Positions 3,024 to 24,776 of a stretch of 24,776 bases of DNA are shown here, piece after piece (the stretch's first letter is position 1; every line of letters starts with the position of its first letter). The position numbers and the translations under genes were made by a program. This stretch comes from a virus. Its lineage: Duplodnaviria > Heunggongvirae > Uroviricota > Caudoviricetes. The stretch covers positions 1 through 24,776 of IMG/VR virus record IMGVR_UViG_2778261457_000006. One strand, 5' to 3'. A model generated the notes under the pieces. It was not told the DNA's origin, searched no databases, and saw only the letters and a program-made list of their open reading frames with translations.

Positions 3024-3347
3024 ATGAAGATGCCAGAAAAACATGACCTGTTAGCCGCCATTCTCGCGGCAAAGGAACAAGGCATCGGGGCAATCCTTGC
3101 GTTTGCAATGGCGTACCTTCGCGGCAGATATAATGGCGGTGCGTTTACAAAAACAGTAATCGACGCAACGATGTGCGCCATTATCGCCTGGTTCATTCGT
3201 GACCTTCTCGACTTCGCCGGACTAAGTAGCAATCTCGCTTATATAACGAGCGTGTTCATCGGCTACATCGGTACTGACTCGATTGGTTCGCTTATCAAAC
3301 GCTTCGCTGCTAAAAAAGCCGGAGTAGAAGATGGTGGAAATCAATAA
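3024..3347 (+). CDS. S: holin S (107 aa) with dual-start motif Met1-Lys2-Met3
   Basis: Translation [34 protein letters not shown]... matches recalled lambda S107/S105. ATG AAG ATG dual start with an upstream cccc..gggg hairpin (sdi-like) at about 3003-3016. Confidence 0.93.
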
Positions 3348-3807
3348 TCAACGTAAGGCGTTCCTCGATATGCTGGCGTGGTCAGAGGGAACTGATAATG
3401 GACGGCAGAAAACCAGAAATCATGGTTATGACGTCATTGTAGGCGGAGAGCTATTCACTGATTACTCCGATCACCCTCGCAAACTTGTCACGCTAAACCC
3501 AAAACTCAAATCAACAGCTGCAGGTCGTTACCAGCTTCTTTCCCGTTGGTGGGATGCCTACCGCAAGCAGCTTGGCCTGAAAGACTTCTCTCCCAAAAGC
3601 CAGGACGCTGTTGCGCTGCAGCAGATTAAGGAGCGTGGCGCTTTACCGATGATTGATCGTGGTGATATTCGTCAGGCTATCGACCGTTGCAGCAATATCT
3701 GGGCTTCATTGCCGGGAGCTGGTTATGGTCAGTTCGAGCATAAGGCCGACAGTCTGATTTCAAAATTCAAAGAAGCAGGCGGAACGGTCAGAGAGATTGA
3801 GGTATGA
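3331..3807 (+). CDS. R: endolysin R (lytic transglycosylase, 158 aa)
   Basis: Translation [49 protein letters not shown]... matches recalled lambda R. Overlaps the S end as in lambda. Confidence 0.93.
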
Positions 3808-4465: not shown

Positions 4466-5008
4466 ATGAATTATCCAACTATCGTTGACGGCATTGATTT
4501 CAAAGAACTGGTTTTTATTACCAACAATGACCCTGTCACCGATTCATTTATGGTGGCGAAAGCATTTCGTAAGCGACATGACAACGTTGTGCGTGATGTA
4601 GAAAGAACTATCGCTGCTTGTCCTGAAGAGTTTGATACAAAACTCAATTTTGAGGTTTGCTATAAAAACAATGAGTTACAGAATGGTAAGCCACAAAAAT
4701 TCTATCGGCTACGTAAGGATGGGTTGATGCTTTTGGTTATGTCCTACACCAAAAAAGAAGCAATGCGTATCAAAATTGCTTACATCAACGCATTCAACTG
4801 GATGTACGCCATGCTTCAGGTTGGTCATCGTCAATTTGAAGAAGAGAGAAATGCCGTAATGCTGGAGTACATGAAAGAGAAGGATGTTGCCAGCATGTCA
4901 GGCCGCCTGCTTAATCGCTGGGGAAAAATTAAGAAGCCTCAGCTACTGGCGAGAATTGAACGCCTTGAACAGCACGGGCAAACCGTAATCCCCGGACTCA
5001 CCAATTAA
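4466..5008 (+). CDS. rha: Rha-family phage regulatory protein (180 aa)
   Basis: N-terminal ...ELVFITNNDPVTDSFMVAKAFRKRHDNVVRDVE... is the recalled Rha-family signature (F-KRHDNVLRDI). Confidence 0.75.
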   Translation: MNYPTIVDGIDFKELVFITNNDPVTDSFMVAKAFRKRHDNVVRDVERTIAACPEEFDTKLNFEVCYKNNELQNGKPQKFYRLRKDGLMLLVMSYTKKEAMRIKIAYINAFNWMYAMLQVGHRQFEEERNAVMLEYMKEKDVASMSGRLLNRWGKIKKPQLLARIERLEQHGQTVIPGLTN

Positions 5009-19972: not shown

Positions 19973-20233
19973 TTAGTTGCTGTCTTTTTTATATAGCTCC
20001 TTGAGCGTATCAAAGACAATTTTCTTAACCATATCAGATTGTTGTTCTGCCATACGCTCTGCATCGTCAATGTAAACTGATGCAGAGCTTTGTTTATCCA
20101 ATGATTCTTCAATCGCTGCAATTATCTCTGAGTTCAGCGACCTGTTATTCATCTTCGCGCGCTGCTTAATTTTCGCGTGGAGTTCATGCGGAAGTCTCAA
20201 GTGAAACTGCGCCTCGTCGTATTTGCTGTACAT
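19973..20233 (-). CDS. mnt: Mnt-like ribbon-helix-helix repressor (about 86 aa; upstream alternative start at 20266)
   Basis: Minus-strand translation MYSKYDEAQFHLRLPHELHAKIKQRAKMNNRSLNSEIIAAIEESLDK...YIDDAERMAEQQSDMVKKIVFDTLKELYKKDSN aligns with recalled P22 Mnt along its length. GAGG lies 8 nt upstream of the internal ATG. Confidence 0.8.
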   Translation of the reverse strand: MYSKYDEAQFHLRLPHELHAKIKQRAKMNNRSLNSEIIAAIEESLDKQSSASVYIDDAERMAEQQSDMVKKIVFDTLKELYKKDSN

Positions 20234-20306: not shown

Positions 20307-20329
20307 ATGCAATCACATCATGGTTGCAT
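20307..20329. promoter_or_regulatory. 23-bp palindrome ATGCAATCACATCATGGTTGCAT in the mnt-tailspike divergent intergenic region (candidate operator)
   Basis: 6-bp perfect inverted arms atgcaa/ttgcat separated by 11 bp, between the two divergent start codons. Function is inferred. Confidence 0.35.
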
Positions 20330-20354: not shown

Positions 20355-22286
20355 ATGTCAGATATCACCGCAAATGTTGTAGTGAGCATGCCTTCGCAAC
20401 TCTTCACTATGGCGCGTTCTTTTAAAGCCGTAGCCAATGGCAAAATTTATATCGGTAAAATTGACACTGACCCGGTAAACCCTGAAAACCAGATTCAGGT
20501 TTATGTGGAGAACGAAGACGGCTCTCACGTTCCTGTTTCGCAACCAATAATCATTAACGCTGCTGGTTATCCGGTATATAACGGACAGATTGCCAAGTTC
20601 GTAACTGTGCAAGGCCATTCTATGGCTGTTTATGATGCGTACGGGGCGCAGCAGTTCTATTTTCCGAATGTTCTGAAGTACGACCCGGATCAGTTCACAA
20701 ATCGCCTAGCCGATGTTTATGGCTCAACGCTGGTTGGAGGAGCGTATTTTTCTGATATAAGAACTTATTCTGAGAAATCAAAAAAAATATATTGCCTTGG
20801 GAGGTCAGGGTTATTTGATGGCGGAGAAGGATGGTTTTATTTAGATGATACAGACACTACGAGCGATGATGATGATGGAATCATTTTGGTTGGGGCTTCC
20901 GGTAGGAGATGGAAGAGGGTAATAGAAGGGAGCTACAAACCCGAATGGTGGGGAGCAGATCCTACTGACACCGTTGATTGCCATGCAGCATTTACAAAAT
21001 GCATCGCTGCTGCACGGGGTAAAGAAATTAGTTTAAGTGGTAAATATAAATTTTCAAAACCACTTGTTATTGACTTTAATGATGAGGCGAGCCTGAAAAT
21101 AACAGGTACTGGCTCTTATAATCATATGGCAAATGCCAAAACTAAAAACCTTTGCTATTTAAATTTTGATTCTATACCGCAAAATTCGCGTGCCATTACT
21201 TTTAAGGGAGTAAGAGGTCTGGTTTTAGAAGATTTTCATGTATCGCATCGTGCCGGTGGTAGTTCGCTTTCAGTCGCTTTATGGCTTACTAAAATAGATG
21301 ATTTTAGATTAACTGGTCTTACTGTGGATTCCGATACTGGACCTGGGGGGCAAGGTATCCGCTTTGGGGAATCTAATGGCACAGACTGTGCTTTCATGGG
21401 GAATATCTCTCATTGCAAAGTGTGGATGCATGGAGGTGGCCCTTCTTTCTGTGTGCAACCGGCATGTACTTCATTGCTGTTTGAAAACTGTTATGGCATT
21501 GGTGGTTATTTCTATTTCCAAAATTGTATCTATTGCTCTATGAACACTTGTGCAAGTGAAGGAAGTGAAGTTTCTGGGTATGGCTATATACTGCATTCTG
21601 TTGAAGGGTTTACTGCTATCAACTGCGCAGGGGAAGGAAATAAGTTAGGTGTTTTTTATCTATCTACAGGGTGTTCTCAAGTAGTTCTTACCTCCCCATA
21701 TGGCGCAGGGAATGGAAATCTTACTGGAGACATAGATGGAGCCCTGGTTAAGTTGGATGGCACATCCGGTGCCAATAGTAATATTTTGATAGAAAACCCA
21801 GTATCACATTCGCAGGTAGGTAATGTGACATCTGATATTAATGCTGTAGGCGTCAATGGGCACACAGAAATAACTAATGTGTATTCAGAAAAACTAACAA
21901 AAGGAATAGCTGGTTCTGATTCCTGGATTCAGAACTATTTAACAATTACAGGAGATTTGAGTTGTCGCGACTTTATACCTGGGATCCCTGGTTGGACAGC
22001 TCCAGGAGGTGCGTTAATTGAAGGAAAATTTACAAGAAATAATAAGATTGTATCTTTTTCGGTTAAAGTGTCGCCAACAAACTATCTTTCATGTGAACAT
22101 GGTCTATCAAAAACGACACTTCCGTCATTTGGAGGGCTGTTATATGGAGGTGCAGCACAGGTTTCGAATACTGCTGGTACGAACTATGGATCTGCGATGA
22201 TCGATACTAACGGTGTGGTTTGGATGCCAAACATAACCAGTACGTCAAATGCAATACTCATAAGTGGGTCTGTGTTAACAAACTAA
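20355..22286 (+). CDS. tailspike protein: P22-type N-terminal head-binding domain fused to a different beta-helix-like receptor-binding/depolymerase domain (643 aa)
   Basis: TGGAG 7 nt before ATG 20355. The first ~115 aa ([13 protein letters not shown]...[63 protein letters not shown]) match recalled P22 gp9. The remainder is unrelated to P22, AT-rich and Cys-rich. Confidence 0.88.
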
Positions 22287-22315
22287 TAAATTGATTTGAT
22301 GGGGCATGGATGGGG

Positions 22316-22374
22316 CAAAAATTAGCGCAAAACAACTCAAAATCATCACAGGTTAAGATTCGTCTTGCGCTAAT
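22316..22374 (-). terminator. candidate terminator for int (10-bp inverted repeat with long loop, then U-run on the minus strand)
   Basis: attagcgcaa (22321-22330) / ttgcgctaat (22365-22374), followed on the minus strand by TTTTT (plus 22316-22320). The 34-nt loop makes it weak. Confidence 0.3.
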
Positions 22375-22377
22375 GAT

Positions 22378-23532
22378 TCATGCTTTTCCGTCAATGAAAT
22401 CAGCCCACCACTGCATCATTTCTCTGCGCTTATCCAGATACTGAGCATGGTTGTAAATCCCGCGCACAGATCCACCGTTGGCATGCGCCAGTTGAACCTC
22501 AATCGCGTCAGCAGGCCATTCGTGCTCGTTCATAATCGTGCTGAATTCATGCCTGAATCCGTGTCCGCTTTCCAGACCCTCATATCCGATTTGTTTGATC
22601 ACAAGTAGTACAGCGTTCTCGCAAATTGGCTTCTTCTTATCGTTGCGCCCGGCAAAAACATACTCTGATACTGGTTTAGTGATTGAGCTTAGCGTAGTGA
22701 GAAGTTCAACCACCTGGTCTGACATCGGGACCACATGAATTTTGCGTCCCTTCATCACACTGGCGTCGATGGTGATAATCCTGTTTTCAAAATCGACGTT
22801 CTTCCATTGCATGGAGCGAAGCTCTTTCGTTCTTAGGGCTGTGTAGCGTAAAACTTTGGTCGCAATGAGCGATACGATACTTCCTGAAAATGTTGCCAGT
22901 GCTTTGTTGAATGCAGGGATCTGGTCTGCTGGAAGAAACGGGAAGTTCTTCTTGCGGTATCCTTTCATGGCGTCTGCAAGGTCAGGTGCCGGGTTATATT
23001 TAGCCCTTCCGGTGACAATAGCGTAACGGAAAACCTCGCCGCATCTTCTGCGGGCTTTGTTGGCTCGTTCCATTGCACCGCGATCTTCAAATCTGCGGAT
23101 TACTTCCAGCAGTTGCATCGGCTCAATATCCTGAATCTCAAGACCGCCGATGATGGGTAAAATGTCGTCATCAAACATTTTGGCAAGCTCAGTTGCATAG
23201 CCTACTGACCATACTTGCTTCTTGTGCTCGTACCATTCCTTGTAAATTGCACTAAAGGAATTGTTGTTAGACGAAGCCTTTTTCGCTTTTACCGGATCGA
23301 TGCCAACCGAGATGTCTTTCCTCGCGGTCCATGCTTTATCTCTTGCCTCCTGCAAAGTCATTAGCGGATATTTTCCTACGGTCAGGATTTTCTCCTTACC
23401 GTCAATCTTGTAGCGAAGCTGCCATACCTTTTTCCCTGACACAGGGACATAAAGGTACAGGCCATTACCATCGAGTAGGCGGTATGGTTTTTCTTTCGGC
23501 TTTGCTGCTTCAATCTGCTTAACGGTGAGCAT
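22378..23532 (-). CDS. int: tyrosine integrase, P4 family (about 384 aa from ATG 23532; ORF extends to GTG 23568)
   Basis: N-terminus MLTVKQIEAAKPKEKPYRLLDGNGLYLYVPVSGKKVWQLRYKIDGKEK is the P4-type arm-binding domain. C-terminal ..GHGFRHEF.. and ..LAHANGGSVRGIYNHAQY.. carry the catalytic His/Arg/Tyr region. Resembles my recollection of E. coli K-12 IntS next to argW. Confidence 0.9.
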   Translation of the reverse strand: MLTVKQIEAAKPKEKPYRLLDGNGLYLYVPVSGKKVWQLRYKIDGKEKILTVGKYPLMTLQEARDKAWTARKDISVGIDPVKAKKASSNNNSFSAIYKEWYEHKKQVWSVGYATELAKMFDDDILPIIGGLEIQDIEPMQLLEVIRRFEDRGAMERANKARRRCGEVFRYAIVTGRAKYNPAPDLADAMKGYRKKNFPFLPADQIPAFNKALATFSGSIVSLIATKVLRYTALRTKELRSMQWKNVDFENRIITIDASVMKGRKIHVVPMSDQVVELLTTLSSITKPVSEYVFAGRNDKKKPICENAVLLVIKQIGYEGLESGHGFRHEFSTIMNEHEWPADAIEVQLAHANGGSVRGIYNHAQYLDKRREMMQWWADFIDGKA

Positions 23533-23693
23533 GGGTAAAAATCCGGTGGGTAAAATTATTTTATCCACTTTTTACCCGTCATGGAGTGCGGCTGTCAACG
23601 ATCTGACGCGAACCATTACGAACTGTGAATCTGCGGAAGGCTTGATATTCAGGGAATTTTGCGGACTGGTACGGATGGGAGCGAACTGATAAA

Positions 23694-23768
23694 TGGTGTC
23701 CCCTGCAGGAATCGAACCTGCAATTAGCCCTTAGGAGGGGCTCGTTATATCCATTTAACTAAGAGGAC
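23694..23768 (-). tRNA. argW: tRNA-Arg (anticodon CCT), host argW
   Basis: Reverse complement GTCCTCTTAGTTAAATGGATATAACGAGCCCCTCCTAAGGGCTAATTGCAGGTTCGATTCCTGCAGGGGACACCA folds as a canonical cloverleaf with anticodon loop CTCCTAA. Matches recalled E. coli argW. Confidence 0.9.
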
Positions 23769-23843: not shown

Positions 23844-24776
23844 TTATGCTGGGTTTTTATCATTTTTCTTAATGTTTTCCGCACGTTCTGCTTTTTGGCG
23901 TGCTTCTGCTTTACGCTTGTTGCTCATGTCGTTACGAATCTGTGCATGACTCATTAACGCGAAGATAAAGGTGCCGCCGCAGATGTTCCCCGCTAAAGTA
24001 GGTAGTGCGAAGGGCCAGATGAAATCGCTCCAGTGCAGCGTGCCGTTAAACACCAGATAGAGGATTTCAACAGAACCGACAACGATGTGGGTGGTGTCAC
24101 CCAGTGCAATAAGCCAGGTCATCAATATAATCACCACAATCTTTGCCGCACCCGCAGCAGGAAACATCCAAACCATAGTGGCGATCAGCCAGCCGGAAAT
24201 GATCGCGTTGGCAAACATCTCGCTGGGGGTGTTCTTCATCACATCCATGCCGATTTTGACAAATGCATCGCGAGTTTCTTCATTGAAGATAGGCATATAT
24301 TCAAATGCCCATGCAGCAATACCTGTCCCGAGAATATTACCCAGCAGCACGACGCCCCATAATCGCATAAGTAAGCCGACGTTGCTCATTGTCGGTTTTT
24401 GCATGACGGGTAGTACCGCAGTCACGGTGTTTTCGGTAAATAATTGCTGGCGGGCCATAATGACGATAATAAAACCAAAGGTATAACCGAGATTCTCCAG
24501 TAAGAAGCTGCCTGGCACTCCTTCCAGTTCGACATGAAATATCCCTTTTGCCAGTAGCGAAGCGCCCATCGACAGACCCGCCGCAATGGCTGACCACAGT
24601 AGCGCCATTGCGTCGCGTTCCAGCTCTTTTTCACCATCCTGGCGGATATGCTCATGAATTGCCATCGCCCGGGAGGGGAGTCGATCTTCATCTATTTCTA
24701 TTTTTTTGCCGCGCTCTTTTTCTTCGCTCTCAACTTCAATTTCGTCGCTGTGTTGATCAATTTTGTCGTTGTCCAT
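23844..24776 (-). CDS. yfdC: inner membrane protein YfdC (formate/nitrite transporter family, 310 aa), host gene
   Basis: Minus-strand ORF ending exactly at the window edge; polytopic membrane protein. Matches recalled E. coli YfdC, which neighbours argW in K-12. Confidence 0.85.
   Translation of the reverse strand: MDNDKIDQHSDEIEVESEEKERGKKIEIDEDRLPSRAMAIHEHIRQDGEKELERDAMALLWSAIAAGLSMGASLLAKGIFHVELEGVPGSFLLENLGYTFGFIIVIMARQQLFTENTVTAVLPVMQKPTMSNVGLLMRLWGVVLLGNILGTGIAAWAFEYMPIFNEETRDAFVKIGMDVMKNTPSEMFANAIISGWLIATMVWMFPAAGAAKIVVIILMTWLIALGDTTHIVVGSVEILYLVFNGTLHWSDFIWPFALPTLAGNICGGTFIFALMSHAQIRNDMSNKRKAEARQKAERAENIKKNDKNPA

Follow-up and report, generated by a model that had tools for sequence, protein, structure and literature searches.

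A probable attL of the IntS/TorI integration module beside the tailspike gene of a P22-like prophage in argW

Genes at the prophage-chromosome boundary

The stretch of DNA analysed here, referred to below as the window, comprises the 24,776 nucleotides of IMG/VR virus record IMGVR_UViG_2778261457_000006 and runs from the late operon of a P22-like phage through an integrase gene into argW and the host gene yfdC. Pfam searches identify a P22-type portal, scaffold and coat, gp4/gp10/gp26, ejection proteins and a head-binding tailspike, that is, the gene set by which a P22-like phage is recognised, and the window aligns with E. coli prophages at 95–97% nucleotide identity over 80–86% of its length. 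All late genes are full length, each as long as its counterpart in the prophage of E. coli W, and the operon is complete from the antiterminator to the tailspike. The tailspike gene, the last of the operon, encodes 643 aa (20355–22286, plus strand, stop codon 22284–22286). The N-terminus of the protein is a P22-type head-binding domain (Pfam Head_binding, E 2e-67), residues 118–642 are 53% identical to the tail fibre of Shigella phage Sd1, and the C-terminal part is the rare, receptor-binding part. The gene starts at 20355 and not at the first ATG of its open reading frame, at 20307. The exact protein that begins at 20355 occurs in one public contig (GCA_002485875.1 / NNVV01000001.1), which begins 90 bp before the window; the translation from 20307 had no exact protein on record.

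Convergent with the tailspike gene lies int (22378–23532, minus strand, start ATG 23532, stop codon 22378–22380), which encodes an IntS-type tyrosine integrase of 384 aa. The protein is 99% identical (378 of 383 residues) to IntS of E. coli K-12, the integrase of the cryptic prophage KplE1 (CPS-53), and the gene is 96–97% identical in nucleotides to int of Sf6, HK620, CUS-3, N7, HF4s, HK633 and IME10 and about 95% identical to int of Dewey, Louie and Kapi1. It belongs to the P4 family of integrases by its three-domain make-up (Arm-DNA-bind_3, or DUF4102, E 2e-25; Phage_int_M, 6e-28; Phage_integrase, 1e-39), by full-length similarity to P4 Int (35% identity over residues 2–381, E 8e-78) and by a core site that precedes int and is flanked by arm repeats; a search of NCBIfam returned the generic integrase model alone, below threshold. 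Among 5426 complete E. coli genomes, 2191 contain an int 3′ end of the present type.

On the other side of int is argW, a tRNA-Arg(CCT) gene located with ARAGORN (23694–23768, minus strand) whose 3′ end is rebuilt by phage DNA, and beyond it yfdC (23844–24776, minus strand), a host gene of the formate/nitrite transporter family (Pfam Form_Nir_trans) and the usual chromosomal neighbour of argW. The order yfdC-argW is common to the window, K-12 and E. coli W. The first-pass annotation had described int as converging on the tailspike over 91 bp and directed away from argW, starting about 160 bp from the argW 3′ end, and this description is accurate; the distance from the ATG is 161 nt. Such an arrangement, in which the tRNA gene is followed by int in the same orientation, was reported for 736 of 1273 tRNA-linked integrases (PMC2951348).

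The attL core and the control region of int

A 16-bp core, CTGCAGGGGACACCAT, lies at 23693–23708 on the minus strand and is made up of the final 15 nt of argW and one further base; this is the crossover region. It matches exactly the 16-nt duplicated core CTGCAGGGGACACCAT reported for KplE1 (PMC2951348) and the cores of attP as annotated in the HK620 and Sf6 records. The int-argW region was aligned with the attL of K-12 and of E. coli W and with the attP of HK620, Sf6, Dewey and N7. All seven sequences agree from the core towards int, with 100% identity in all of them from the −35 box through the ATG and the first 30 codons of int. In the other direction, the three prophages continue into argW and the four phages into the P arm (GGGTAAAATAGCGGGTAAAATA), the break falling exactly at CTGCAGGGGACACCAT. 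Near-identity of the window to the attL of KplE1 in K-12 and to that of E. coli W extends to either side of the core, with a few substitutions relative to KplE1 between the core and the −35 box, and its match to the phage attP sequences is confined to the int side. Agreement of seven sequences on one side and divergence precisely at the core together mean that the window holds an attL, and they bear out the earlier placement of the phage-host junction on the 5′ side of int.

The promoter of int, PintS, occupies 23562–23598 on the minus strand, with a −35 box TTGACA at 23598–23593, a −10 box TAAAAA at 23574–23569 and transcription starts at 23563/23562 (T, A). These starts were placed through identity to the K-12 attL, where they had been mapped by primer extension: in KplE1, intS is driven by its own promoter within attL, with boxes −35 TTGACA and −10 TAaAAa and primer-extension starts at a T and an A just past the −10 box (PMC2951348). 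A promoter scan had proposed the hexamers ATGACG/AATAAT (23582–23555) instead, and these were set aside in favour of the experimentally mapped PintS. The same mapping bears on the start codon of int, which had been called ambiguous between ATG 23532 and GTG 23568. The GTG is in frame and the first start codon of the program-made open reading frame, and would give a protein of 396 aa. It lies, however, at 23568–23566, upstream of the transcription start mapped on identical sequence, and the 12 additional codons would overlap the promoter and the arm sites. Further, both the Pfam arm-binding domain and the alignment with P4 Int begin at residue 2 when the protein is read from the ATG, and the annotations of K-12 IntS, HK620 int and Sf6 gene 16 all start at this ATG. 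Since the mapped start lies downstream of the GTG, we take ATG 23532 as the start codon and give almost no credence to the longer form.

Predicted arm-type (P′) sites for IntS extend over 23533–23577, a stretch that begins right beside the ATG, takes up the 5′ UTR and reaches into the −10 box. They comprise three perfect copies of GGGTAAAA, at 23533–40 and 23548–55 on the plus strand and at 23570–77 on the minus strand, and a degenerate copy, GGATAAAA, at 23559–66 on the minus strand. A fourth perfect copy of GGGTAAAA is found within int (23155–62, plus strand), near a degenerate attP repeat (GGTAAAA) that the HK620 record annotates inside int, and the same record annotates attP repeats on the very bases of the cluster beside the start codon. 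The four copies in the window compare with 0.49 expected, and none of 100 shuffles reached four. For KplE1, the P′ sites have been described as sharing a TAAA motif, with P′1 overlapping the −10 box (PMC2951348), and this literature on identical sequence supports the assignment of the GGGTAAAA motifs in the window as putative IntS arm-type sites, as had been suggested from the sequence alone. The repeats then noticed at 23533–23556 correspond to the first two copies; the inverted third copy at 23570–77 had been overlooked. The alternative identity offered for the motifs, IHF sites, is not retained, as the literature gives them to IntS arm binding. IHF itself is reported to be required for excision in vitro.

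Five putative pentamers for the excisionase TorI, recognised by motif position and from the description of the KplE1 attL, lie in two blocks between 23599 and 23686 on the minus strand. Three adjoin the −35 box (GATCG 23599–603, GTTCG 23609–13 and GTTCG 23619–23, minus strand) and two adjoin the core (GTCCG 23662–66 and GTTCG 23682–86, minus strand), and all five are kept in the seven-sequence alignment. The KplE1 attL likewise carries five TorI sites (GTTCG, GATCG, GTCCG) in two blocks, intS is repressed both by IntS and by TorI, and excision of KplE1 has been demonstrated to depend on these two proteins (PMC2951348). The window thus has int in the orientation of the tRNA gene beside attL, with a promoter overlapping IntS arm-type and TorI sites, which is the organisation that defines the module; the module is kept in HK620, Sf6 and CUS-3, and in it the transcription of int and of the RDF is uncoupled (PMC2951348, Panis et al. 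2010). While the identities and positions of these elements in attL are established here, their function in the present prophage would follow that of the dissected KplE1 attL, to which the region is nearly identical. We propose, from the overlap of the promoter with IntS and TorI sites, that int would be held low by negative autoregulation; in the prophage, int would be expressed solely from PintS, inside attL, and excision would be governed by expression of TorI from the opposite end.

P4 offers a parallel to this arrangement. There, too, the core precedes int, at a distance of about 150 bp, against 161 nt from core to int ATG in the window, and in both cases three arm repeats stand between core and gene, one of them touching the start codon. 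P4 has two more repeats beyond the core and one inside int, and its excisionase gene is remote from int. It differs from the window in an arm repeat of the GGGGGCA type rather than GGGTAAAA, in core, tRNA target and repeat orientations, and in the kind of element that it is.

The interval between tailspike and int

The convergent stop codons of the tailspike gene and int are separated by 91 bp (22287–22377) that hold no conversion gene. Most of this interval is occupied by a hairpin (22316–22374, minus strand) that begins 4 nt past the int stop codon; its stem has 15 bp, and a U-run comes after it on the int strand. Its fold has a minimum free energy of −24.7 kcal/mol (z −4.26), and not one of 200 shuffles folded equally well. 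The HK620 record annotates a terminator at the equivalent place after int, and the hairpin is probably the intrinsic terminator of the int transcript. A simple terminator scan of the 91 bp found nothing, the loop of the hairpin being above the limit of the scan, and it was folding that revealed the structure. With a gap of 91 bp and a U-run on the int strand only, late transcription under Q antitermination might conceivably run antisense through int into attL, a suggestion that we consider unlikely to prove correct. If it did, antisense late transcripts would form a built-in switch of lytic growth that silences int and PintS; such a switch is undescribed for KplE1, which has no late operon, and would probably be equally valid for Dewey, Louie and Kapi1.

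The junction itself is rare. A megablast comparison of the spacer with 5426 complete E. coli genomes matched the prophage of E. coli PK13 and no other; no complete E. coli genome or phage record covers the whole tailspike-int junction, and an exact 51-mer spanning it is absent from the GTDB representative genomes. Homology with the relatives breaks in the last codons of int, at about 22383–22400, which we interpret as a mosaic boundary. Searches of the window by tblastn with TorI/HkaC, GtrA, GtrB, YfdI, Sf6 Oac, the O-antigen modification protein of HK620 and the acyltransferase of E. coli W gave zero matches, in agreement with the earlier statement that xis and genes of the gtr/oac type are lacking from the window.

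In the relatives, the interval between tailspike and int is a variable site for conversion genes (morons), and in the window this slot is empty. It holds oac in Sf6, an O-antigen modification gene in HK620, neuO in CUS-3, gtrABC in HF4s, gtrAB-yfdI in K-12, an acyltransferase gene in E. coli W, a 108-aa open reading frame in N7, and a small open reading frame with an HTH pseudogene in PK13. In Dewey and Louie, both isolated as virions, it is a gap of 239 bp with one doubtful 32-aa open reading frame, and in Kapi1 a gap of 171 bp with a 34-aa remnant of an acyltransferase. Dewey, Louie and Kapi1 are functional phages with a near-empty slot, and an empty slot therefore does not imply a disabling deletion.

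It could be that the ancestor of the present prophage carried an O-antigen conversion gene (of the oac, gtr or acyltransferase type) in the slot of an otherwise normal module, and that this gene was lost or swapped in a harmless loss of a moron. Most relatives have a conversion gene in this place, Kapi1 retains its acyltransferase remnant, and the break in homology within the last codons of int marks a mosaic boundary. Against this, tblastn detects no remnant of such a gene in the 91 bp, and the content of the slot differs in nearly every relative, so that gain is as likely as loss. We regard such a history as a real but minority possibility, and it is compatible with the main explanation given below.

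Module order in relatives and the distal end of the prophage

Phages with P22-like virions differ in the position of the attachment site relative to int and xis. P22 resembles the window in its virion gene set and in having the tailspike as the last late gene, but its order is gene 9, gtrCBA, attP, int, xis, with attP on the 3′ side of int, and this places int and xis together at one end of the prophage. The first-pass annotation had described P22 in this way, with the att site between gene 9 and int and the conversion genes beside att, and the P22 record agrees. The att-int-xis organisation of P22 and lambda is not that of the window, where the core flanks the 5′ end of int and the tblastn search gave no xis homologue. 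The records of HK620 and Sf6 show instead a core upstream of int, with hkaB/gene 17 and hkaC/gene 18 beyond the core, a "prophage excision" promoter for int between core and int, and a cII-dependent promoter, pI, beyond hkaC; in both phages the excision promoter and the attP repeats fall on the bases equivalent to 23532–23578 of the window. TorI was reported in 2012 to be 100% identical to HkaC of HK620 and gp18 of Sf6, and its identity to HkaC was found again here at 100%. The CUS-3 record gives an "attL core" beside int. The paper on Kapi1 also places attP between int and xis, hence the two genes at opposite ends of the prophage. A separate observation concerns the public record of HK633, where attP has been put on the lambda-like side of an integrase of the present type, the same error as arises from reading such a module by the order of P22.

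From these relatives, the order in the free phage would be late operon, tailspike, an optional conversion gene, int in reverse, P′ arm, core, P arm, hkaC/torI (the xis gene, in reverse) and the early-left genes. With xis on the far side of an attP that lies upstream of int, a crossover in the 16-bp core would part the two genes, and integration would leave int with the tailspike at attL, by argW, and xis at the far end, by attR. The distal end of the K-12 and E. coli W elements indeed reads torI, GGGTAAA(A/T)TAGCGGGTAAAATA and the core, with two P-arm GGGTAAA(A/T) sites ahead of the core, this second copy of the core being exact in K-12 and having one mismatch in E. coli W. By analogy, torI and attR of the present prophage would lie at its distal end, beyond the window, and the prophage would be competent for excision.

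The element could alternatively be a degraded remnant that has lost its attR or torI end, with int and attL left as relics as in many cryptic elements at argW. The distal end is outside the window, the attR core of E. coli W has its one mismatch, and CPS-53 of K-12 shows that argW elements do decay. The late operon, however, is complete from antiterminator to tailspike, the integrase is intact, with 99% identity to an enzyme that is active, and even the 10-kb KplE1 remnant of K-12 still excises (PMC2951348). Full-length late genes favour an intact prophage, short of proof, and decay to a remnant seems to us improbable.

Comparison with KplE1 is closest in the integration module and most distant outside it. 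Their integrases are 99% identical, and they have in common the 16-bp core, the boxes of PintS, the sites of arm type, all five TorI pentamers, and the order and orientation of yfdC-argW-int. Of KplE1, however, a remnant of 10 kb is left in which int is followed by gtrAB-yfdI; in the window, a complete P22-like late operon ends in a tailspike gene that abuts int. HK620, Sf6 and CUS-3 share with the window attP upstream of int and the tailspike on the other side, and differ in the conversion gene between tailspike and int and in their receptor-binding domains. The closest likeness at the junction is to Dewey and Louie, isolated from sewage, and Kapi1, which have the same integrase module and a tailspike converging on int over gaps of 171–239 bp; their xis lies across attP, their spacers are unrelated to the 91 bp of the window, and their tailspikes are others.

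These comparisons decide between the two explanations that had been offered for the lack of xis near int. A deletion, on the one hand, might have joined the tailspike to int and taken xis, early genes or both with it, leaving a rearranged prophage that cannot be mobilised. The window does lack xis and conversion genes, and its 91-bp spacer is shorter than that of any relative examined. Yet in every relative with the present integrase, the virion isolates Sf6, HK620, N7, HF4s, Dewey, Louie and Kapi1 among them, attP separates xis from int, and xis never stands on the side of int that faces the late operon; Dewey, Louie and Kapi1 have a like junction with no real gene in the slot; and the window has kept intact all its late genes, int, attL and the terminator hairpin of int. 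The deletion is thus unsupported, and we consider it highly improbable. The P4-like arrangement, on the other hand, in which attP adjoins int and xis is at the far end of the prophage, is the correct one of the two, matching the studied modules of HK620, Sf6, CUS-3, Kapi1 and KplE1 and paralleling that of P4. The layout that had seemed an oddity, and that was to be judged by whether related functional phages share it, is their norm; it is documented for this phage group and was already known.

Taken together, the region is very probably the attL formed when a P22-like phage of the Lederbergvirus type inserted into argW by means of the IntS/TorI module of KplE1 (CPS-53), HK620, Sf6, CUS-3 and Kapi1, and the 91-bp junction an empty moron slot and not a lesion. 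It is properly labelled as the attL of a prophage with the IntS/TorI module, with int read from ATG 23532 and the core at 23693–23708. The lack of xis and of conversion genes near int is no sign of a defective prophage. P22-like virion modules pair with different integration modules, and comparison with P22 only makes a normal layout look odd.

Attachment core and arm-type repeats

A small ORF, hkaB in HK620 and gene 17 in Sf6, straddles the attP core of these phages and is split by integration; its remnant in the window (23652-23714, minus strand) comprises only the C-terminal 21 codons, with 90% identity, fused to argW sequence. There was a fourth copy of the arm-type IntS site motif GGGTAAAA at 23155-23162, inside int and approximately 370 nt from its ATG. 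HK620 has a similar but degenerate repeat (GGTAAAA), annotated as an attP repeat, in a roughly matching place, and in P4 an arm repeat likewise lies inside int. The attR core of the argW prophage of E. coli W (41931-41946 of the locus compared) had one mismatch versus attL, a change of the final T to G, while one site in its P-arm was GGGTAAAT in place of GGGTAAAA, and the csc sucrose genes directly followed this attR.

Late region, immI and tailspike

Position 1 of the window is position 91 of the source contig NNVV01000001.1, i.e. 90 bp from the contig beginning, and the assembly break therefore falls inside the nin region of the prophage, probably caused by repeats common to other lambdoid prophages. 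Two phage-borne tRNA genes, tRNA-Asn(GTT) and tRNA-Thr(TGT), were located at 2626-2781 with a Q-type antiterminator gene (1728-2351) on one side and a holin gene (3024-3347) on the other, and two tRNAs were reported at the equivalent position in the Kapi1 paper. In the immI region, which separates the tailspike from the gp16-like ejection gene, a Mnt/Arc-family repressor gene (19973-20233, minus strand) was the sole gene retained, whereas P22, N7, Kapi1, and PK13 also have arc and ant; immI of E. coli W was equally reduced.

The tailspike (20355-22286) was a chimera of two parts; its true start at 20355 lies 16 codons inside the mechanically called ORF, which opens at 20307. Residues 1 to approximately 128 formed a P22-type head-binding domain with about 90% identity to HK620, CUS-3, and IME10, while the top phage match for residues 118-642 was a tail fibre from Shigella phage Sd1, an unrelated phage, at 53% identity. 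The exact protein occurred in one public contig only.

Distribution of the integration module

In the record of phage HK633 (JQ086377.1), attP is annotated lambda-style, downstream of int, at 3302-3382. This annotation is probably wrong, because the exact argW core CTGCAGGGGACACCAT (4796-4811) and the int-hkaB-hkaC module, the same as in the group to which the window belongs, place the core upstream of int. The same int was also carried by the Stx2 phage VT2phi_272, and its occurrence with hkaB and hkaC in HK633 makes the module common to a siphovirus too.
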